64,000 nucleotides of DNA. Source: Clostridia bacterium. GTDB taxonomy: Bacteria; Bacillota; Clostridia; UMGS1883. Positions 5,181 through 61,022 of the stretch are shown here, piece after piece. The notes beneath the pieces were generated by a model that searched no databases, was not told the origin of the DNA, and saw nothing but the letters and a program-made list of their open reading frames with translations. The first letter of the stretch is position 1, and each line of letters begins with the position of its first letter. The stretch spans positions 2,845 through 66,844 of the forward strand of contig JAZORN010000080.1 of assembly GCA_045656645.1 (NCBI GenBank), read 5' to 3'. The position numbers were made by a program, and so were the translations under genes.

Positions 5181-5858
5181 ATGATAGGAATTATCGGTGC
5201 AATGAATGTGGAAATTGACCGCATTACGGCGCAGATGACAAATAAATCTGTGCAGAAATTTGGTGGGGTGACCTATACCGAGGGTGACATAGGCGGAAAG
5301 AGGGTTGTTGCGGCAGTTTGCGGTATAGGAAAGGTTTTTGCCGCAATTTGTGCGCAGACAATGATACTTAAATATTCTCCTGAGGTTATTATTAATACAG
5401 GCGTTGCAGGTACACTTACAAAAGAGCTTAACATCCTTGACACTGTTGTTGCAAGTGCCCTTGTACAGCACGATATGGATACAACATATTTTGGTGACCC
5501 GAGGGGAATGATTTCGGGAATAAATATCGTTGAGTTTGCGTGTGACGAAGAATGGTCTGAAAGAATCTGTAAAAATATTAATTCAAAATATATTCGTGGT
5601 ATTATAGCATCGGGTGATGCTTTTATAGCAGATGAAAATAAAAAAAGAGATATAAAAGAAGCCTTTAATGCTGTTTGCTGCGAAATGGAGGGCGCGGCAA
5701 TTGCACACGTATGCTATGTTAACGATGTAAAGTGCACCGTTGTGAGAACCATTTCAGACGGAGCTGACGGTGACAAGGAAATGAGTTATGAGGCTTTTTG
5801 TGAAAAAGCCGCCCAAAAATCGGCACAGATAATTATAGATACAATTAATAAAAAATAA
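5181..5858 (+). CDS. mtnN: 5'-methylthioadenosine/S-adenosylhomocysteine nucleosidase
   Basis: N-terminus MIGIIGAMNVE and catalytic-region motif CEMEGAA. It is adjacent to luxS (activated methyl cycle). Confidence 0.9.
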   Translation: MIGIIGAMNVEIDRITAQMTNKSVQKFGGVTYTEGDIGGKRVVAAVCGIGKVFAAICAQTMILKYSPEVIINTGVAGTLTKELNILDTVVASALVQHDMDTTYFGDPRGMISGINIVEFACDEEWSERICKNINSKYIRGIIASGDAFIADENKKRDIKEAFNAVCCEMEGAAIAHVCYVNDVKCTVVRTISDGADGDKEMSYEAFCEKAAQKSAQIIIDTINKK

Positions 5859-5872
5859 TAGGAGGAACAAAA

Positions 5873-6613
5873 ATGAAAAGTGTAGTTTTAGCGGCAGGAT
5901 ATGCTACAAGACTTTATCCGCTTACAGAAAATTTTCCAAAACCTCTTCTGGAGGTTGCGGGAAAGAGTATTTTGGACTGGCTTCTTGATGACATTGATAA
6001 CATAAAGGGAATTGATGAGCATATTATCATATCAAACCACCGTTATGTGGAGCATTTTGAAAACTGGAAGAAAAATTCAAAGCTTAAAAACCCCATAACA
6101 ATCATTGATGATGGCTCTATGTCAAACGAAACACGTCTTGGTGCGGTAAAGGATATTCAGTTTGCGATAGATACCTTAAACCTTGATGATGACCTTTTTA
6201 TAGTTGCAGGCGACAATATGCTTGATTTCTCGTTTCAGTCGTTTGTAGATTTATTCCACGAGAAGAATGCGGCAGTTGTAATGTGTAACTATGAAGAGGA
6301 TGTAAATACACTTCGCAGATGCGGAGTAATGATACCTGACAGTGATTTCCGTGTCGTGTCTATGGAGGAAAAACCTCAGGACCCCAAATCAAACTGGTGT
6401 GTAGGTCCGTTCTACATATATAAAAAGGATGAGCTTCATCTTATAAAGCAGGGGATTGAGGATGGTTGCGGAACAGATGCACCGGGAAGCTTTGTATGCT
6501 ATCTTTGCGAAAAAACAGATGTTTACGCACTTAAAACTCCGGGTAACAGATATGATATAGGAACACTTGAAAGCTACGAAGAGGTTAAGAGAATTTTTGA
6601 AAAGCAGGCATAA
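5873..6613 (+). CDS. sugar-phosphate nucleotidyltransferase family protein
   Basis: N-terminal nucleotide-binding loop LAAGYATRLYPLT...KPLL of the NTP_transferase fold. Substrate not assignable. Confidence 0.7.
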   Translation: MKSVVLAAGYATRLYPLTENFPKPLLEVAGKSILDWLLDDIDNIKGIDEHIIISNHRYVEHFENWKKNSKLKNPITIIDDGSMSNETRLGAVKDIQFAIDTLNLDDDLFIVAGDNMLDFSFQSFVDLFHEKNAAVVMCNYEEDVNTLRRCGVMIPDSDFRVVSMEEKPQDPKSNWCVGPFYIYKKDELHLIKQGIEDGCGTDAPGSFVCYLCEKTDVYALKTPGNRYDIGTLESYEEVKRIFEKQA

Positions 6614-52943: not shown

Positions 52944-53092
52944 AAAAAAAGGAAGCTACCGATTTGGTAACTTCCAATTATACATCGTTATTCCTTAGCT
53001 GTTGCTCAGGCATCCCTACGTTGGCATTATCCAAATCAGGTTCTCGGTCGAAGGTCATACCTTCCTCTCAGCCTGTAATACAAGCTCCCGTT
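52944..53092 (-). promoter_or_regulatory. TPP (THI-box) riboswitch with terminator expression platform
   Basis: Minus strand reads ...ggctgagag...gaacctgatttggataatgccaacgtagggatg..., which is the THI-box core. It is followed by hairpin ggaagttacc/ggtagcttcc plus ttttttt (52944-52975), directly upstream of thiS. Confidence 0.9.
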
Positions 53093-53262
53093 TTTTTATT
53101 TATTTTTGTATATTAAATTAAATTATTCCCACTCGCTCATGGTTTTGTAACCTCAACTGAATAAGCTAATAAATCGTGTTTCGCAGTGGTCATATTCTAT
53201 ATATTACCATAATTCTTTTGACTTTTCAATATTTTGTTGCCAAAATGTTGCCACAGCTTTTG

Positions 53263-55146
53263 CTATTTATGTTTTCGTATATATTGAAATATCAATTTTG
53301 ATAAATCTTTTATACTATCATCTAGTTCCTTAGCGGTGTTTTTATGGTCAATCAATCCGGAAGAGGAATGTGATATCGGATTAGAATTCCGCAGGTTATG
53401 TGCAGTTGATATTATAGTTTCGCTATCTTCTATTTCTGCATAAAACCCAAGAAAAGCCTTTTCTTTATAAAATCCTTTATAATTGGGCTTTTTTCCCTCA
53501 TGGTTTTCATTAAATACAAAATCCAAGTCGGCAGTTACTCTGTCAAAAAAGTTTTTATAATATGCAAATGCAGCCATGTTGTTTTTTCTCTTTGTTTCAC
53601 ACAAGTACATAAAATATAAGTATGCCGCCTTGTTATCTTTCTTAATAATATCACAAAGCCGATTGATACGATGCGGTTTTATCGAAATGACAAAACTTTC
53701 TTTGCACCCATCTGTGTAATATCTGAATAAATTTGGATGGTATTCCTTTATTATATTCAATAAATCCCAATGCTGAAATTTACTTTGTATTAAATATGAG
53801 ATAGCAATTGTTGTATCATAAGAATTCCACTTACCACTTCGATAACGAGTAAACAATTGATTCAGAAACGCTCTTATTGCTTTACCGCATTGCGTTTTCA
53901 TAATCATTACTGTTAATCTTTTTGGATCTAAATTTATGAAAGCTATACTTTGTTTGATTAACTCAAGAATTTGATTGGCTACTTCTTGTGTATGTAGCTC
54001 TTCTTCATTTTCATACACAAAATAATTAAAAACTTCATTTGGAGTAAATTCGATATCTTTTGAAGTAAAGTGTTTATCTATAAGCTCATTATACCTCTCT
54101 ACATCAACACTATCAAAAATAAGTTCATCTGATAAGTCCTGTAAAAATCTCAACAAAGCACCTTTAAACAAGTCTTCTATGTTGTGTTTCTGTCCATTAT
54201 AGTATTCGTCATACAATGATTTTTTTAGTTCCTCATTTATTTCTGATGCCTTTCTGATACAACACTTCTTCGTATTCAAGGATAAACCATATTCTTTTAA
54301 TATAGAGGAATATTCATTCCTTATTTCATTATAAGTATCTCCTAAATACATCAAAGATTTATCAGAAGCTATTAAAATATACAAATCATCCACATATCTA
54401 ACCATACGAAAAGATGTAATATCAGGAACCTTTGCATCTAAAAATTCATGTAGTTTTAAATCAACATTGTCTAAATAAACGACAGTTGACAGATACGATG
54501 AAGCAACACTATTTTCTATCAGTGGAAATCTCCCATCACCACAATATGTAAGTAACTCCTTATAAATTTGCAATTGTGTTTGCGAAAATTTAACATCAGC
54601 AGCATTACATACAGCATCAATTTGAGATATAAGTTTATCTACATTAATATTTGAGAAAAAGTTAGTAATGTCCGTTTTTATAAAATACTGATATCCGTCA
54701 ATACAAGCATTTAATTCTTTAAAGAAATTATCATAATCTTGCTTATACTTAGGGCGCATAAATTCATAATTTCCCGCATAATAAACCGAAACATTTTGTG
54801 GTCTTATGGGATTATACTCATTAAATATTTCTTTTCCAACTGACTGTAGCACTAAATATAAAATTGGTGAAATAAGCGATGAATTTCTAAAACTTCCATC
54901 GCTTTTTTGCAAATAATTTTCAGACTGTTGCATAGCATCAGGAAAAAATACTATTGACGATGTTTTTATATATCGCTCATAAAAATCTTCACTTGATATG
55001 TACCCTTTGTCTTCTCTAGAAATTTTAGTGAAGGGAAACCATTGTAAGTATGCTTTTGCAGAAAGAGTGTTTAATGAAAAATACATTTCACAAATACTTT
55101 TCCATGTATCATAACTTATACCTAACAATAGAACACCTCCACCCAC
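53263..55146 (-). CDS. AbiA-like reverse transcriptase with C-terminal HEPN-like domain
   Basis: RT motifs: SLISPILYLV (1/2), IKTDITNFFSNI (A), PLIENSVASSYLSTVVYL (B'), RYVDDLYILI (C; YVDD at 54385-54396), YGLSLNTKKC (D). The ~330-aa helical C-terminal region has LRNSNPISH (Rx6H, 53368-53391). The start could instead be the TTG at 55128, after ggaggtg. Confidence 0.8.
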   Translation of the reverse strand: MGGGVLLLGISYDTWKSICEMYFSLNTLSAKAYLQWFPFTKISREDKGYISSEDFYERYIKTSSIVFFPDAMQQSENYLQKSDGSFRNSSLISPILYLVLQSVGKEIFNEYNPIRPQNVSVYYAGNYEFMRPKYKQDYDNFFKELNACIDGYQYFIKTDITNFFSNINVDKLISQIDAVCNAADVKFSQTQLQIYKELLTYCGDGRFPLIENSVASSYLSTVVYLDNVDLKLHEFLDAKVPDITSFRMVRYVDDLYILIASDKSLMYLGDTYNEIRNEYSSILKEYGLSLNTKKCCIRKASEINEELKKSLYDEYYNGQKHNIEDLFKGALLRFLQDLSDELIFDSVDVERYNELIDKHFTSKDIEFTPNEVFNYFVYENEEELHTQEVANQILELIKQSIAFINLDPKRLTVMIMKTQCGKAIRAFLNQLFTRYRSGKWNSYDTTIAISYLIQSKFQHWDLLNIIKEYHPNLFRYYTDGCKESFVISIKPHRINRLCDIIKKDNKAAYLYFMYLCETKRKNNMAAFAYYKNFFDRVTADLDFVFNENHEGKKPNYKGFYKEKAFLGFYAEIEDSETIISTAHNLRNSNPISHSSSGLIDHKNTAKELDDSIKDLSKLIFQYIRKHK

Positions 55147-55183
55147 AATTTGTATTCAAATAATTTTGATATAGTTTTTAATA

Positions 55184-56311
55184 TCACATTTCCTTAATAA
55201 AACCTATATTATATAACTTGTCCACTAGTGCAATTATATTTTCTGTTTGCACATCATCACTATCAAAAACAACAGACGCTACATAATCAGGTTTCTGATT
55301 ACGTTCATGTGCGTTCATATCGAAAATATAAAACTTAAGTCTAAGGTCATCACATACATATCCGCCAATATGTGTTTTGTCTACGTCAAATTCAGAATAA
55401 TGTGAAATAATTGATGAACCATCCTCAGCGGAAATAGTGTAGCTATAGCTATCTTTCAAGTGCAATCTTATATAGCTGGTTTCTTTTTCATCAAATAACC
55501 GGAATAAATTTTTAAGCAGCGTAAATGCTTTAAGGAAATTATATGGTGACACAAAGAAACTAATTCTTGCACAATTGTCATGTGCAGTATGATTTGTTCC
55601 AATCGTTTTATTCTCCTTGCGGTAAATTATTTTAACACCATTAGCAACTATACAAGCGGTTCTTTCACTGTGGTATTTATCATTTCTTGAAAAAGAAATA
55701 TGATTATCTTCTAAATAACCAACAATGCTATTAAAAAATTTTTCAATATCGTATTTGATGCTTTTTCCATCTACTGTTTGTTCTCCGTATATTATGCACT
55801 CAGCTTTTTCGATTACATTTTCAAAATTAACTGTATTAAATGATTCCGCAGAAAGATTCTTAATAACTTCTAAGTAATCGTTATGTTCAAAAGCATTTGA
55901 AAAATGGTATTCAAATGTTCTATTTACAATGGTAATAAAATTATTAAGACTATCTTCTGAAGATATATTGAACCCTTGCAGCAAGTTGAGTGGCGCTTTT
56001 AATGAGCCAATATCCACACCTATTCCTACGGGAATAACTTGAATTCCTTTCGAATAAGCATAACCCGCTTCAAAATATATCCAACCCGAAGAAATAGAGT
56101 TTTCAGTTACAAAAACAAACATAATTTGTGCTGCTTGCAACCCTTCTTCTATTTTATGAATCCAATTAGTACCAAAAGGGATGCTTTGTCCATCACTAGA
56201 CATAAAAATATCCATAACTCCGCCCGTTACCGAGTCCAACTTATTTTTTATTGAAAGAATTATATCCTTATCTTTCGATGAATGACTAAAAAACAATGTG
56301 GGTTTGCCCAT
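55184..56311 (-). CDS. TIR-domain protein with uncharacterised C-terminal domain
   Basis: N-terminal TIR/ThsB-like pattern LFFSHSSKDKD...NWIHKIEEGL...MFVFVTENSISSGWIYFEAGYA, with a candidate catalytic Glu at 56069-56071. About 240 further residues match nothing I recognise. ATG at 56311 (RBS gaggtga). The ORF opens at a GTG at 56332. Confidence 0.7.
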   Translation of the reverse strand: MGKPTLFFSHSSKDKDIILSIKNKLDSVTGGVMDIFMSSDGQSIPFGTNWIHKIEEGLQAAQIMFVFVTENSISSGWIYFEAGYAYSKGIQVIPVGIGVDIGSLKAPLNLLQGFNISSEDSLNNFITIVNRTFEYHFSNAFEHNDYLEVIKNLSAESFNTVNFENVIEKAECIIYGEQTVDGKSIKYDIEKFFNSIVGYLEDNHISFSRNDKYHSERTACIVANGVKIIYRKENKTIGTNHTAHDNCARISFFVSPYNFLKAFTLLKNLFRLFDEKETSYIRLHLKDSYSYTISAEDGSSIISHYSEFDVDKTHIGGYVCDDLRLKFYIFDMNAHERNQKPDYVASVVFDSDDVQTENIIALVDKLYNIGFIKEM

Positions 56312-56352
56312 ATTTATTTGTTCACCTCTCACTTTCTAAACACGAATAAATA

Positions 56353-56949
56353 CTAACACACACAAGCCTCAAGTACTCTTATCAGCACCCTATAGTTGTC
56401 AACAGACAATATTGATGCTTCTAAGAGTTCTTCTTTATCTACATTTCCCCAATTAAGGTCATATCCCATACGCTTTGCCATAAGGCGGATAAATTCACGG
56501 ATAGAACGACCATTGCCCTCTCTGAAAGGATGTATAATGTTGAGTTCTGCCATAACATATGCCAAATTATCAAAAAACTTTTCTTCGTCGGTTTCCTTGA
56601 GCATATTTTTCTCTTTTATTTTTGCAAATACTTTATCAAGCTCTCTATCAATCAAGTTCGGCGGATAAAACATTGTATCCGCTTTACTAATTTGCTCTCG
56701 TCTGATTTTACCGGCAAACGAATAAATATCTTCAAAAATAAACTTGTGTATATTCATAAGATGCGCTTTTGAAAAGTTACCCTTTATCGGATTCTTCAAA
56801 AGTTCCATTTGCTTAATAAGTGTAATTTCTTCTTCAGCGGTTTTGAGAAGTTTATTATCTCTTATATTCAATTTATTTTTCAATATATTACTATCGGGAT
56901 AGCAATAAATTGATTGGGTAGTTGTATAAACATCGTATTTCGAAAACAT
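56353..56949 (-). CDS. Fic-family AMPylating toxin (class I type)
   Basis: Canonical Fic motif HPFREGNGRSIR (56497-56532). 198 aa. It sits directly downstream of a VbhA-like antitoxin gene. Confidence 0.85.
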   Translation of the reverse strand: MFSKYDVYTTTQSIYCYPDSNILKNKLNIRDNKLLKTAEEEITLIKQMELLKNPIKGNFSKAHLMNIHKFIFEDIYSFAGKIRREQISKADTMFYPPNLIDRELDKVFAKIKEKNMLKETDEEKFFDNLAYVMAELNIIHPFREGNGRSIREFIRLMAKRMGYDLNWGNVDKEELLEASILSVDNYRVLIRVLEACVC

Positions 56950-56951
56950 AA

Positions 56952-57323
56952 TTACACCCTCTGCATATATTTAAGCTTCAATTCTTCGATTACATCAGTA
57001 TAGCTTACTTTGCCACTATCAATTCTTTTGAGGTTTTTAATACTTTCTTCGCTAACGGTCATACTCTCTACTGCAAATGTTCCTTTTAGATTTTTTAAAT
57101 TGCTTTCAAAATCGTTAGATGCCATATCTGTTTTATTTCTCCAATCGGTATATTTACCTGATTTAATTCTCGCATCAGCAGGTTTCTCTGCATCTTTTGG
57201 TAAAAGCCAAGCGCCTGCAATTTTCTTTGCGCCAATAATTCTCCCCTCATTACACAAAACGGTAATTCTTCTTACAGAAATTCCCCACATTAAACTTGCT
57301 TCTTTTATTGTTAGTATATCCAT
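56952..57323 (-). CDS. HTH DNA-binding domain fused to VbhA/FicA-like antitoxin domain
   Basis: N-terminal MerR/excisionase-type HTH (LTIKEASLMWGISVRRITVLCNEGRIIGAKK). The C-terminal GTFAVESMTVSEESI fits the inhibitory (S/T)xxxE(G/N) helix except for the last position (Glu at 57066-57068). 2-nt gap to fic. Confidence 0.7.
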   Translation of the reverse strand: MDILTIKEASLMWGISVRRITVLCNEGRIIGAKKIAGAWLLPKDAEKPADARIKSGKYTDWRNKTDMASNDFESNLKNLKGTFAVESMTVSEESIKNLKRIDSGKVSYTDVIEELKLKYMQRV

Positions 57324-57344
57324 TTCAACACCTCATTTATAAAC

Positions 57345-57373
57345 ATTATATACCATAAATAGAATAATGTCAA
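57345..57373 (-). promoter_or_regulatory. consensus promoter upstream of antitoxin-fic-TIR-RT cluster
   Basis: Minus strand: TTGACA (57368-57373), exactly 17 nt, TATAAT (57345-57350). A gaggtg RBS then precedes the ATG at 57323. Confidence 0.6.
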
Positions 57374-57551
57374 TATATTCATAAAATTATGTGGAATTAG
57401 ACAATGATTTTTCGCAGCAAAGGTCAAACAAGAAACATCTGTTACAATGTGCCTTTATATGTCTTTAAAAAGCCACAAAAAAATGTTATAATAATTTTCA
57501 ATACTATCTTTTTGTTGCTTATATTCGTTATATATAGTAGAGATATTAAAT

Positions 57552-58109
57552 ATGAGCGTTCTAATAACGGGAAAGGAGGATTTTGTGGACATTGATTTTT
57601 TACTGATACAGAAAATGAAACGTGGCGACGAAAAAGCATTTGATATATTTGTGCATAAGTATTATGAAAGAATATTACGCTATTGTGCCTATCATTGCCA
57701 AGATGTTTCTTATGCGGAAGATTTAACGCAAGAAACTTTTGTCCGTTTCTTTTCAAAATTATCTGATTACCGTTATATAGGTAAAACCATAAACTATTTA
57801 TATACTATAGCAGGCAATCTTTGTAAGGACTATTTCAAAAAGAAAAAAGAAAGTTTGTTAGATGAACCCTCTGCAGAGGTTGAAGATAAACTAAGTCAAT
57901 CGGACACAGAAAAAATCCTCGATAGAATTACCATTGAAGCTGCGCTAAGGAGTCTGCCCGATGAACTTCGTGAGGTTATTATTCTTTATTATTTTCAAGA
58001 ATTAAAACTTACGGAAATAGCAGATGCCTTAAATATAGGCTTACCATTGGTAAAATATAGACTAAGACAAGCAAAATTGAAATTGGAAAAGTTGCTAAAG
58101 GAGGATTGA
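57552..58109 (+). CDS. ECF-type sigma-70 family RNA polymerase sigma factor
   Basis: Region 2 (YAEDLTQETFVRFF) and region 4 HTH (LKLTEIADALNIGLPLVKYRLRQAK). The true start may be the in-frame GTG at 57585, after aaaggagga. Confidence 0.85.
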   Translation: MSVLITGKEDFVDIDFLLIQKMKRGDEKAFDIFVHKYYERILRYCAYHCQDVSYAEDLTQETFVRFFSKLSDYRYIGKTINYLYTIAGNLCKDYFKKKKESLLDEPSAEVEDKLSQSDTEKILDRITIEAALRSLPDELREVIILYYFQELKLTEIADALNIGLPLVKYRLRQAKLKLEKLLKED

Positions 58110-58113
58110 TTTT

Positions 58114-58878
58114 ATGAGCTTAGATAAAAAGATTAAAGATTATAAAGAATCTATTAACGTGCTTCCCAACGAAGAAAAAATAAAAGATACTGTAACAAAA
58201 TCAATAGATGCATTTTGTTCTGCTCAGCAGCAAAAAATATTAACCTATTGGGAGTTTTTATGGACGCAATTAAAACTTATACAAAAAAAATGGTGGTTTT
58301 TCCAACTGTTGCTCCTTATTGTGTTATGGATTGCATTACCTTCCATGAAAGGTGAACAGTTTATGCCAAAAACACTTGGGGTTATTGCTTCCTTATTCGT
58401 TATTTTAATTATTCCGGAGCTATGGAAAAATAAAACAAATAAATCGATGGAGATAGAATGTACGTCTTATTATTCATTGCGACAGATATATGCAGCAAGG
58501 ATGATGTTATTCGGTATTGTTGATATTGTTTTGATTTCTCTGTTTTGTGTACTTTCTTCTCTTGTATGGGGGATTGTATTTTCAGAACTTTTGGTGCAAT
58601 TTATTCTACCAATGGTAGTAACTTCTTGTATATGTTTTGGTATTTTATGCAGTAAGTATTCATTCAGCGAAACTATTGCTGTAATAATGTGTGTCTTATG
58701 GAGTGCTATATGGCTGCTTGTTGTTTTGAATGAAAATGTATATGTTGCGATTACCTTTCCCTTATGGATTATTTTTCTTGTAATCGCCTTTGCTTTTTTG
58801 GGTTTTACAATCTATCGAACGCTTTTCTACTGTAATAATTATTGGGAGGTACCTTTTTATGGAATTGATGTTAAATAA
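58114..58878 (+). CDS. multi-pass membrane protein, probable anti-sigma/partner of the ECF sigma
   Basis: A cytoplasmic N-terminal ~55 aa followed by about six TM helices. Position immediately after the sigma gene (5-nt gap). No motif recognised. Confidence 0.5.
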   Translation: MSLDKKIKDYKESINVLPNEEKIKDTVTKSIDAFCSAQQQKILTYWEFLWTQLKLIQKKWWFFQLLLLIVLWIALPSMKGEQFMPKTLGVIASLFVILIIPELWKNKTNKSMEIECTSYYSLRQIYAARMMLFGIVDIVLISLFCVLSSLVWGIVFSELLVQFILPMVVTSCICFGILCSKYSFSETIAVIMCVLWSAIWLLVVLNENVYVAITFPLWIIFLVIAFAFLGFTIYRTLFYCNNYWEVPFYGIDVK

Positions 58879-59746
58879 TCTAACAAAAAAATTCGGGGAT
58901 TTTACAGCAGTAAAATCTATTAACATTACTATGACAAACGGTATATATGGATTGTTAGGTGTTAATGGTGCAGGAAAAACGACGCTAATGAGAATGTTAT
59001 GTACTTTATTAAAGCCTACAAAAGGTACTATAACCTGCAATGGTAAAGATATTTTCAAAATGGATGCTGATTACCGAAATTTATTAGGCTATTTGCCGCA
59101 AGATTTTGGTTTTTATCCGGATTTTACTGTAACTGACTATCTTCTTTACATCGCAACAATTAAGGGCATACGACCTGTTGTTGCTAAAAAGAGAACTAAA
59201 GAACTCATATCAAAAGTTGGACTTACTAATGTTACAAACAAGAAAATGAAAAAGCTATCGGGCGGAATGAAGCGACGTGTCGGGATTGCACAAGCAATGT
59301 TAAATGATCCGAAAATACTGATACTTGACGAGCCAACGGCAGGTCTTGATCCCAATGAAAGAATACGATTTAGAAATTTGATTAGTGAGCTTTCAAAGGA
59401 ACGTTTGGTTTTGTTATCTACTCACATTGTTTCAGATATTGAATATATCGCAAATGAAATATGGTTGATGAAAGACGGTGCTATTGTGAATAAAGGCACC
59501 TTACAAGAAACCATAAATTCAATGCCGGAAAAAGTTTGGACTTGTTTTGTCTCAGAGGGAAAACTATCTACAATTACAAAACAATATAAGGTATCTAACA
59601 TTAAATCAGGAGTTAATGGAGCAGAACTACGAATTATATCACCAAGCAAACCTTTTGAAGATGCAGTTTGTGTTGAGCCTACATTAGAAGATGTATTTTT
59701 ATATTATTTTGGAGAAAAGGTTGGTGATGATGGTGCTGCGCTTTGA
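58859..59746 (+). CDS. ABC transporter ATP-binding protein
   Basis: Walker A GVNGAGKTT, signature LSGGMKRR, Walker B ILILDEPTAGLD. ATG at 58859 with a gggaggt RBS. Confidence 0.9.
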   Translation: MELMLNNLTKKFGDFTAVKSINITMTNGIYGLLGVNGAGKTTLMRMLCTLLKPTKGTITCNGKDIFKMDADYRNLLGYLPQDFGFYPDFTVTDYLLYIATIKGIRPVVAKKRTKELISKVGLTNVTNKKMKKLSGGMKRRVGIAQAMLNDPKILILDEPTAGLDPNERIRFRNLISELSKERLVLLSTHIVSDIEYIANEIWLMKDGAIVNKGTLQETINSMPEKVWTCFVSEGKLSTITKQYKVSNIKSGVNGAELRIISPSKPFEDAVCVEPTLEDVFLYYFGEKVGDDGAAL

Positions 59747-60956
59747 GTTGAAAAAAATCTTTTCAAAATCAACTAATAAAATTGTATGTTTAATATTAGC
59801 TATAACATTAGGTGTTATTTGTTACTTTGCTGCAGGATATGTGACGTATGTTGATAGAAACGGAGAAAAAACGTCGGGATTTGTTGCAGCACAATCCTTG
59901 AAAAAAGAGAAAAATCAATGGGCGGGATATATTACCGAAGATGTGTTGACAAAAGTTATTGAAGAAAATACACTCATCAACAATTCCGAAGAATATCTTT
60001 CTAATGATGTAAAAGAAAATGAAAAAGCATATTCAAAAAAACAGGGTTTTTCCGACATAAGAGAAATGATAAATAGAGCATTTTGCAGTTTTCAAGAATA
60101 CAATTATTACCGGGCAGACAACGTCACAAAACAAGAGGTCAGTTCTTTTTATGATAGAAGAACATCCATTTTAAGGGAATGGTTAAATGCCGAAGAACAA
60201 GAACACTATTATTCAGAAAATGAAAAACAATTTTTAATTGAGCAATATGAGAAATTGAAGACGCCTCTCTATTATGAATATGCCGACGGGTGGGAAGCAC
60301 TATTGGAATATGCACCATCAATTATTATGTTATTGATGTTAATTATGGGCTTTTTAGTTTCCGGTATCTTTTCCGATGAAACACAATTAAAAGCAGATTC
60401 TATTTTCTTTTCAACTAAATTGGGAAGAAATAAAGCTATAGTAGCAAAAATAGGAGCAGGAATTATCACAATTACCTTAATTTATTGGATAACTATGTTG
60501 CTATATTCAGGAATTGTATTAACCCTATTAGGATATGACGGAGCTAACTGTGTTATACAGAGCGGATTTGCAAATTGGAAAAGCTTTTATAACATTACTT
60601 ACTTACAAGATTATTTATTGACCGTGTTTGGTGGATATTTAGGAAATTTATTTATCTTAACTTTATCTATGCTTGTATCTGCAAAAACACGCTCAAAAAC
60701 TTTGGCAGTAGCCATACCTTTCATTTTGTTGTTTATACCGTCATTTCTCAACGGAATATCTGTACTATCAGAGGTTTTAGGACTTCTACCAGACCAACTG
60801 TTGCAAATATGTACTGTAATAAAGATGTTTAACTTGTATGAAATCGGAGGGAAAATAGTAGGTTCTGTAAGTATTCTCTTTACAATATATCCAATTCTTC
60901 TTTTTGTTCTTTTGCCTTTTATATATGGTATATATAGAAAGCATCAATGCACTTGA
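59727..60956 (+). CDS. ABC-2-type exporter permease
   Basis: N-terminal TM helix, a large extracytoplasmic loop, then about five C-terminal TM helices. It overlaps the ATPase gene end. Confidence 0.7.
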   Translation: MMVLRFELKKIFSKSTNKIVCLILAITLGVICYFAAGYVTYVDRNGEKTSGFVAAQSLKKEKNQWAGYITEDVLTKVIEENTLINNSEEYLSNDVKENEKAYSKKQGFSDIREMINRAFCSFQEYNYYRADNVTKQEVSSFYDRRTSILREWLNAEEQEHYYSENEKQFLIEQYEKLKTPLYYEYADGWEALLEYAPSIIMLLMLIMGFLVSGIFSDETQLKADSIFFSTKLGRNKAIVAKIGAGIITITLIYWITMLLYSGIVLTLLGYDGANCVIQSGFANWKSFYNITYLQDYLLTVFGGYLGNLFILTLSMLVSAKTRSKTLAVAIPFILLFIPSFLNGISVLSEVLGLLPDQLLQICTVIKMFNLYEIGGKIVGSVSILFTIYPILLFVLLPFIYGIYRKHQCT

Positions 60957-61022
60957 ATATAAATGCAGATCGATAGATATAAGTATTAATTACAAGGGTA
61001 TTATAAACGACATACAAAGAGA

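Follow-up and report, generated by a model that had tools for sequence, protein, structure and literature searches.

Defence islands are built of independent modules that stand head to tail, use common promoters, and come and go singly. Among the described systems that are closest to the locus considered here, class I Fic toxin-antitoxin (TA) pairs, such as VbhT/VbhA of Bartonella and FicT/FicA of E. coli, place a small open reading frame (ORF) upstream of, and nearly abutting, a Fic gene of ~200 amino acids (aa), while TIR domains occur in the defence proteins ThsB of Thoeris, TIR-APAZ of SPARTA, SpbK, and those of the AbTir type. AbiA polymerizes DNA from a protein primer and without a template, requires its HEPN domain for activity, and defends alone in both Lactococcus and E. 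coli (PMC11077055). A UG/Abi survey describes AbiA-large as a fused reverse transcriptase (RT)-HEPN gene, names SLATT as the only partner, and this for the small form, and mentions neither Fic nor TIR (PMC9226505). In a 64 kb stretch from a Clostridia bacterium (contig JAZORN010000080.1 of assembly GCA_045656645.1, positions 2,845 to 66,844 of the forward strand; hereafter the window), four genes in a row encode a putative helix-turn-helix (HTH) antitoxin (AT), a Fic protein, a TIR protein, and an RT-HEPN protein. From a comparison with related loci (labelled L001 onward), we consider it reasonably probable that this islet of ~4.3 kb consists of three autonomous defence modules, namely a Fic TA pair that has an HTH antitoxin and owns the promoter, a stand-alone TIR protein, and AbiA, which were stacked stepwise and share the TA promoter.

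The row is composed of the following features:

57373..57345, minus strand: sigma-70-type promoter TTGACA-17-TATAAT, score 12/12, 21 nt upstream of the AT start codon
57323..56952, minus strand: AT, putative HTH antitoxin, 123 aa
56949..56353, minus strand: Fic protein, 198 aa
55182..56352, minus strand: inserted segment of ~1.17 kb, comprising a methyltransferase remnant, a leader with a Shine-Dalgarno sequence, and the TIR ORF, between the Fic stop codon and the ancestral spacer
56329..56352, minus strand: non-coding 3′ remnant of a methyltransferase gene (YLFVFRK plus stop), which forms the left junction of the insert
56311..55184, minus strand: TIR protein, 375 aa, its ATG preceded by GAGAGGTG
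55129..55181, minus strand: residual Fic-AbiA spacer, which holds the AbiA ribosome-binding site GGAGGTG and has no hairpin
55128..53263, minus strand: AbiA (RT-HEPN), 621 aa, likely TTG start

End-free pairwise alignments and blastn searches between the window and its relatives show that window positions 56352-55182 correspond to positions 7958-9130 of L042 at 82.7% identity and to L043 at 80.5% (blastn). This homology runs from the base after the Fic stop codon to two bases past the TIR stop codon, and the sequences on either side are not homologous. The first 24 nt of the segment translate into YLFVFRK bracketed by stop codons, and the same seven residues are the true C-terminus of a ~248-aa N6_N4 methyltransferase that is encoded upstream of TIR in L042 and L043, where the two genes are arranged in DpnI/DpnII-type restriction-modification (R-M) operons. 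In L042-L044, the TIR leader overlaps the methyltransferase stop codon, and the gap between the two genes is 19-20 nt. The dead methyltransferase codons in front of the window's TIR gene imply that the transfer ran from an R-M operon into the Fic-AbiA spacer. The TIR gene is thus, on these alignments, a later insertion that brought with it the seven 3′-terminal codons of a methyltransferase gene.

The TIR protein itself has a Pfam TIR_2 domain (3.4e-11) with an invariant Glu81 in WIYFEAG, and it shares its N-terminal TIR fold and conserved glutamate with the bacterial TIR defence proteins named above. Its C-terminal half, an alpha/beta region of ~220 aa, is modelled with good confidence (AF2, pLDDT 84.8) and has no family match. 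Naming this domain after TIR-APAZ was considered and dropped; the TIR-APAZ chains of SPARTA are the top Foldseek matches, and their TM of only 0.25-0.29 (~0.28 over the whole chain) is too low. The family has 658 homologues, most of them ~375 aa long, in Firmicutes, Melainabacteria, and Gammaproteobacteria, and PADLOC returns generic TIR matches alone, together with weak ThsB-like ones (7e-8). A total of 46 TIR loci were examined (L001-L046), consisting of 41 genome loci and 5 closer relatives at 64-86% identity. As with other bacterial TIR defence proteins, the surroundings are those of defence islands: the neighbours are methyltransferases, restriction enzymes, integrases, SLATT, other TIR proteins, and HNH proteins, and roughly one in three of the TIR genes begins at most 45 nt past an unrelated gene on the same strand. 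No neighbour family is conserved across the 46 loci. In contrast to Thoeris, neither ThsA (the SIR2, Macro or SLOG effector) nor another conserved partner accompanies TIR in these loci, and the window's TIR has Fic and AbiA beside it instead; in contrast to SPARTA, no conserved partner gene is present, no Argonaute is found among the Pfam-annotated neighbours, and the likeness to TIR-APAZ is weak. The protein was consequently assigned to neither system. Judged by its neighbourhoods, it is a stand-alone member of a large, unnamed family in defence islands that often closes R-M operons.

The co-occurrence of the genes was evaluated across 84 AbiA loci in addition to the 46 TIR loci. None of the 84 contains the window's TIR family and none of the 46 contains AbiA, according to tblastn and hidden Markov model (HMM) searches, so that the two do not co-occur in any of the 130 other loci; a close Fic is likewise missing from all 46 TIR loci by the same searches. 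Further, HMM searches find no Fic within 6 kb of AbiA in 78 of the 84 AbiA loci, and one of the six Fic matches (L098) is distant, on the opposite strand and ~2 kb downstream. The order Fic-TIR-AbiA is restricted to short metagenome contigs in which AbiA or TIR is 98-100% identical to that of the window; the four-gene arrangement is, across this sample, confined to one near-clonal lineage. It is therefore highly improbable that the four proteins form a new obligate composite, with the TA pair as sensor and regulator, TIR as signalling protein or NADase, and RT-HEPN as effector. Its one argument, the tight co-directional order behind a single promoter, holds for the window and for contigs with no less than 98% identity to it, whereas TIR is a secondary insertion, and its family never stands together with AbiA in the 130 other loci. 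A first-pass annotation of the window had raised such a composite as one possibility, and had spoken of a TIR-RT pair; the comparison supports neither, and the pair is not seen outside those near-identical contigs. The same annotation reasoned that TIR-RT pairs occurring elsewhere without the Fic module would reduce the adjacency to simple clustering in a defence island; the result goes further than this, since elsewhere the pair itself is absent. The clustering interpretation is essentially correct, but the clustering is operonic, and a promoter-AT-Fic-AbiA cassette within it is conserved.

This cassette is visible in the loci related to the window through AT, which include, among others, those with an AT at 91-95% identity. 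In the clade with the closest AbiA (81% aa identity; L047-L051 and L144), an AT and a Fic at 91% and 90% identity stand directly before AbiA, TIR is absent, and the Fic-AbiA spacer is 35 nt long (L047/L144). Homology between the window and L047/L144 spans the -35 box to the AbiA stop codon, with nucleotide identities of 84, 86, and 80% for AT, Fic, and AbiA, and the flanking sequences are unrelated. The promoter is conserved in L047, L142, and L144-L148; in these, homology begins at the -35 box and the DNA further upstream differs. L144 places AT-Fic-AbiA behind the same promoter, has no terminator between Fic and AbiA, and has a strong terminator with an 11-bp stem ~70 nt past AbiA.

AT-Fic at 85-90% nucleotide identity is also found without AbiA. 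In L142, the perfect promoter, AT, and Fic (89-90% nucleotide identity) are followed, 14 nt past Fic, by a strong terminator with a 10-bp stem, and the next gene, an unrelated one of 945 aa, has its own promoter. In L148, AT-Fic is alone and leads directly into the 155 nt that come after AbiA in the window (86% identity). AbiA is deleted but for its first 47 nt in L145, broken into two ORFs in L146, and absent from L147, where AT and a shorter, 194-aa Fic are directly followed by IS3-type transposase genes on the opposite strand. One and the same AT protein (P0276) is encoded in L144, L145, L146, and L147. More widely, a homologue search with AT as the query shows its family to be common at 70-98% identity, and Fic homologues at 62-63% identity lie in viral contigs that lack AbiA. 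The island of L145 also contains, further downstream, a Gabija-like pair of genes for an OLD-family ATPase/TOPRIM protein and a UvrD helicase (AbiA deletion and gene pair together: L145 5972-6220 and 8212-10372).

By HMM, Fic directly upstream of AbiA is found in one narrow clade and in L101, the sole case among the other 79 AbiA loci. In L101 (3589-6513), the AbiA gene, whose product shares 57% identity with that of the window, is preceded at a distance of 115 nt by a gene for a fused HTH_17-Fic protein of 298 aa with an internal SNAIEGN inhibitory motif. The fused Fic is of the intramolecular-inhibitor type, and L101 is a second and evolutionarily separate Fic-AbiA adjacency. Such a distant recurrence would fit a genuine three-gene functional unit of AT, Fic, and AbiA to which TIR is an add-on, as would the sharp ends of the cassette, which extends between the -35 box and the AbiA stop codon, in two genomic contexts and its promoter-to-terminator organization in L144. 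The TA pair would then gate or regulate AbiA; for example, a labile antitoxin lost during infection would derepress the operon, or Fic would cooperate with AbiA. We hold such a unit to be unlikely, and these examples of it equally so: the great majority of AbiA loci have no Fic nearby, the P0276 antitoxin accompanies an AbiA that is intact, deleted, or split and a Fic that has insertion-sequence genes beside it instead, AT-Fic at 89-90% identity stands alone with its own terminator in L142, and AbiA works by itself in Lactococcus and E. coli (PMC11077055).

The identity of the window's AbiA is clear from its full-length family matches. PADLOC AbiA is matched at 6.4e-243 over positions 1-603 of 604, and NCBIfam TIGR04499 at 745.8 bits (cut-off 250) over positions 2-615 of 615. 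A Pfam RVT_1 domain (1.4e-9) covers residues 139-299, with the YVDD catalytic motif in RYVDDLYI, which is invariant in 22 homologues; PF18732 HEPN_AbiA_CTD (2.3e-57) covers residues 496-626 and 130 of 132 profile positions. The RT-HEPN gene is therefore a full-length AbiA of the large form. It has the same plan as the lactococcal AbiA of pTR2030-type plasmids, which is an AbiA-large of UG/Abi class 1 and is seen on pUCCL629C, with an RT-like region (YVDD), a helical region, and a C-terminal HEPN_AbiA_CTD, and both copies come last, behind another defence module transcribed in the same direction. The window's copy differs in that it is only 27.8% identical to the lactococcal protein (over 99% of the length), follows a Fic TA pair and TIR rather than LlaJI-type genes, and is chromosomal in a gut-type Firmicute context instead of on a dairy plasmid.

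Lactococcal AbiA adjoins the LlaI R-M system, and a similar arrangement is seen on pUCCL629C, where the archetype lies after LlaJI-type restriction genes on the same strand. Among the sampled loci, AbiA is located directly past a type I HsdR gene in 16, past type III Res or other ResIII genes in further ones, and beside a divergent Xre-type regulator in 17. In several of the HsdR loci, AbiA overlaps the hsdR stop codon by 4 nt (L053, L054, L056, L057, and L059; hsdR end at 5983 and AbiA ORF start at 5980, or equivalent), which implies translational coupling of AbiA to the restriction subunit. From its HsdR, ResIII, and LlaJI positions, AbiA's normal habit is to be the tail gene of another defence operon; as far as gene order indicates, it is habitually the last gene of unrelated operons, and so is the window's TIR family.

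The Fic TA pair is the module that leads the row. Fic has an intact active site, HPFREGNGRSIR, which matches the canonical HxFx(D/E)GNGRxxR motif of class I Fic toxins, and it is recognized by Pfam Fic (1.1e-17) and by the PADLOC candidate system PDC-S04 (5.6e-70). Its best family matches are NCBIfam VbhT (2.5e-41, positions 3-177) and E. coli Fic (5e-35), both partial and under the equivalog cut-offs, and its plasmid homologues are annotated as Fic with a VbhA antitoxin. It is a putative class I Fic-type toxin, that is, a FicT/VbhT-like adenylyltransferase. AT has a Pfam HTH_17 domain at its N-terminus (4.5e-6), followed by a VbhA-like C-terminal segment with the motif T-FAV-E-S, which lines up in register with the S/T-xxx-E-G motif of two annotated VbhA antitoxins in a weak, motif-level alignment. 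Unlike the class I antitoxins, which share the [S/T]xxxE[G/N] motif, AT carries Ser in place of Gly or Asn (T-xxx-E-S), is not recognized by VbhA models, and is double the usual length because HTH_17 is fused to its N-terminus. Since Pfam and NCBIfam HMMs, a PDB sequence search, and BLAST all gave no match for a VbhA identity, the antitoxin role of AT is a reasonable inference from its position and this alignment. The domains named in the first-pass annotation (antitoxin, Fic, TIR, and RT/HEPN) agree with Pfam, PADLOC, and NCBIfam. As a separate observation, AT residues 1-52 (HTH_17) are 48-52% identical to the N-termini of Dam-type (MethyltransfD12) methyltransferases in the R-M operons that bear close TIR relatives (L042 4073-4228, L043 5381-5536, and L044 3291-3446).

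The row has the architecture of an operon. The same annotation had described four minus-strand genes with short gaps that lack stem-loop terminators, behind a single strong promoter upstream of the first gene, and each of these features is present. The gaps between AT and Fic, Fic and TIR, and TIR and AbiA are 2, 41, and 55 nt; the last is 37 nt if AbiA begins with the GTG at 55146, where the mechanical ORF starts. The TTG at 55128 is preferred because it has the better Shine-Dalgarno spacing, 5 nt after GGAGGTG, and because the family models are matched from the first position. From 57345 to 52975, the minus strand has no terminator-like site in a terminator scan, and the folding energies of the two larger gaps are no better than those of shuffled sequence (z = -1.75 and 0.03). 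The promoter at 57345..57373 is one of 3 perfect TTGACA-17-TATAAT matches in the window, which contains 10 matches with at most one mismatch where shuffled sequences give 0.88 by chance; it belongs to the AT-Fic module and is probably the sole promoter of the four-gene row. A consensus scan detects no internal promoter scoring at least 10/12 that is positioned upstream of TIR or AbiA to drive either. The nearest sites are 56288..56259, which scores 10/12 and lies within the TIR ORF, and 55266..55238 (TTGATA-17-GAAAAT), which scores 9/12 and lies ~110 nt upstream of AbiA. There is also a sense-strand site of 11/12 (TTGATA-17-TATAAT) at 54116..54088, minus strand, inside the AbiA coding region, which is probably a chance match in DNA of 29% G+C.

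One transcription unit, as had been proposed, is the best reading of this architecture, and the relatives carry terminators only at unit ends (L142 and L144). TIR and AbiA each have a ribosome-binding site and no recognizable promoter, and both are habitually found at the tail of unrelated operons, from which it follows that they are likely served by the TA promoter, most likely through read-through. The converse, that the genes are mere island neighbours, each with its own weak or non-consensus promoter and beyond the influence of the antitoxin, is very unlikely in our judgement. Promoter-like sites are indeed frequent in the region, owing to its low G+C content of 29-33%, and their number is as expected (38 found versus 40 expected), with the 9/12 site ahead of AbiA and the 11/12 site inside it as examples. 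However, nothing of at least 10/12 is usefully placed before TIR or AbiA, the gaps have no terminator, terminators in L142 and L144 mark the ends of units only, the TIR leader is the same as the one that overlaps a methyltransferase stop codon in L042-L044, and AbiA overlaps hsdR by 4 nt in several loci.

Taken together, the evidence suggests the following course. A promoter-AT-Fic-AbiA cassette would have formed first, and it is still present in relatives; a TIR gene from the 3′ end of an R-M operon would then have been inserted right after the Fic stop codon, so that TIR and AbiA would be transcribed by read-through from the TA promoter. Gene content, junctions, the layout of promoter and terminators, and the spread of the modules among relatives are direct observations on the sequences; co-transcription, repression by the antitoxin, and the defence activity of each module are inferred. 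It is plausible that the HTH antitoxin represses this shared promoter, and its autoregulation, if any, would also set the levels of TIR and AbiA. An imperfect inverted repeat of 15 nt that overlaps the -35 and -10 boxes was considered as the antitoxin's operator and dropped, as it is missing from L047 and not conserved in relatives. Such a coupling of doses is a by-product of stacking, and not the sign of a dedicated four-part mechanism. Several observations weigh against stepwise stacking of separate modules. Two genomic contexts have preserved AT-Fic-AbiA as one block with exact boundaries, and there is a distant second case in L101, from which some functional link between Fic and AbiA remains conceivable. 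The antitoxin assignment draws on gene position and a weak motif alignment, with no HMM or BLAST match; TIR or AbiA could be driven by promoters too weak for a consensus scan, of which the 9/12 site at 55266..55238 is an example; and the loci are a sample, not an exhaustive census.

Downstream of AbiA, the row is followed by a conserved element and by the leader of a thiamine operon:

53253..53123, minus strand: conserved 131-nt element directly 3′ of AbiA, with TGGCAAC-N4-TGGCAAC at its 5′ end
52996-53101, minus strand: thiamine pyrophosphate (TPP) riboswitch (Rfam RF00059, 60.7 bits, E 1.5e-10), in the leader of a thiS-thiF-thiG-thiH-thiE operon
52975..52951, minus strand: riboswitch terminator, the first terminator downstream of the defence row

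The 131-nt element is defined by its two ends. Although the variants differ in their interiors, all of those found have AGCGAGTGGGAAT beginning exactly 116 nt downstream of where the 5′ motif begins, and homology stops sharply past GGGAATAA. The element follows AbiA in about 20 of the 78 loci with enough downstream sequence, namely in the clades at 65-68% identity and in both hsdR-AbiA and Xre-AbiA contexts (L052-L095); a copy is at L088 9202-9335, and a good promoter lies just upstream of the element in several loci. Its 5′ repeats also occur after TIR in L046 (9185-9320) and after Fic in L148 (5977-6110), with diverged 3′ motifs (CGAATTTGAAT and GCGTTACGGAAT, respectively). The 3′ motif thus looks decayed in L046 and L148, where AbiA is absent, and is intact in the viral contig L231 (~5531-5667), which also has no AbiA; there, the element comes after restriction-like genes, and 125 nt separate it from the end of a convergent tyrosine integrase gene. 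Most hits of the 5′ motif in viral contigs were chance matches; among 120 loci scanned, the full element was present in L231 alone. Other tandem 7-mers, which keep the 11-nt period but have different sequences (TGATAGC, TGATAAG, TGATAAC, and TGGCTAC), are located at the 3′ boundaries of defence genes or just past the element (L042 9128-9165, L043 9128-9160, L055, L065, L068, and L088), which suggests a family of protein-binding sites of differing specificity.

Several roles for the element were tried and set aside. A structured RNA is not indicated, as RNAalifold gives almost no consensus with 9 sequences and none with 16, and hairpins fall in different registers; there is no Rfam match. No ORF is conserved on either strand, and a conserved TAG lies 8-9 codons upstream of an apparent frame that ends in SEWE-stop. 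A sigma-54 promoter agrees with the GG-N10-GC spacing but not with the TGACAAC and TGATAAG variants. The element does not lie between repeats, in that neither end motif has a second copy in the 64 kb window and L046 has no matching direct repeats. A recombination site (arm-type repeats plus core), a small RNA gene that serves as an integration target, an activator-dependent promoter, and a sigma-54 promoter were considered as candidate roles, none being preferred over the others.

The position between Fic and the 131-nt element has been seen empty, with AbiA, and with TIR plus AbiA. It could be viewed as a reusable insertion site, with the HTH antitoxin and Fic as a promoter-and-sensor platform for promoterless cargo, where the antitoxin would repress the shared promoter and, being labile, would decay once infection shuts off host expression, which would free Fic and derepress the operon, so that TIR and AbiA are induced at the moment of need; we regard this proposal as speculative and distinctly unlikely.

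A promoter-like site inside the element (TTGAAA-17-TAATAT with TG, 53229..53201) may be the thi promoter. With no terminator lying between AbiA and the TPP riboswitch, transcription that runs through the defence row would extend to the terminator of the riboswitch. Over 53000-61000, which includes the defence row and the adjacent genes for an extracytoplasmic function (ECF) sigma factor, an anti-sigma factor, and an ABC transporter, the G+C content is 29-34%, compared with 38-43% for the thiamine operon; from this difference, the low-G+C and possibly acquired block may reach past the four genes.

Overall, all components of the row are of known kinds, and their combination is new only in the trivial sense in which islands constantly recombine. 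The locus therefore serves as a corrective: a tidy operon with a TA pair, Fic, TIR, RT, and HEPN looks like a new immune system, yet it would consist of three known or ordinary modules that were stacked by separate events. What distinguishes it from other examples of stacking in defence islands is that its junctions can be read at base resolution, with a 24-nt methyltransferase tail that came with TIR and a 47-nt AbiA stub that was left behind in L145. It would thus be a base-resolution case of how defence operons grow, in which promoterless single-gene systems join the 3′ end of an available defence operon, sometimes bring a few codons of their previous host gene, and are lost again by deletion. 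The 131-nt element that closes many such stacks may point to a mechanism that moves or regulates these cassettes. If it is true that the antitoxin controls the promoter, the autoregulation of a TA pair would set the dose of unrelated defence genes.

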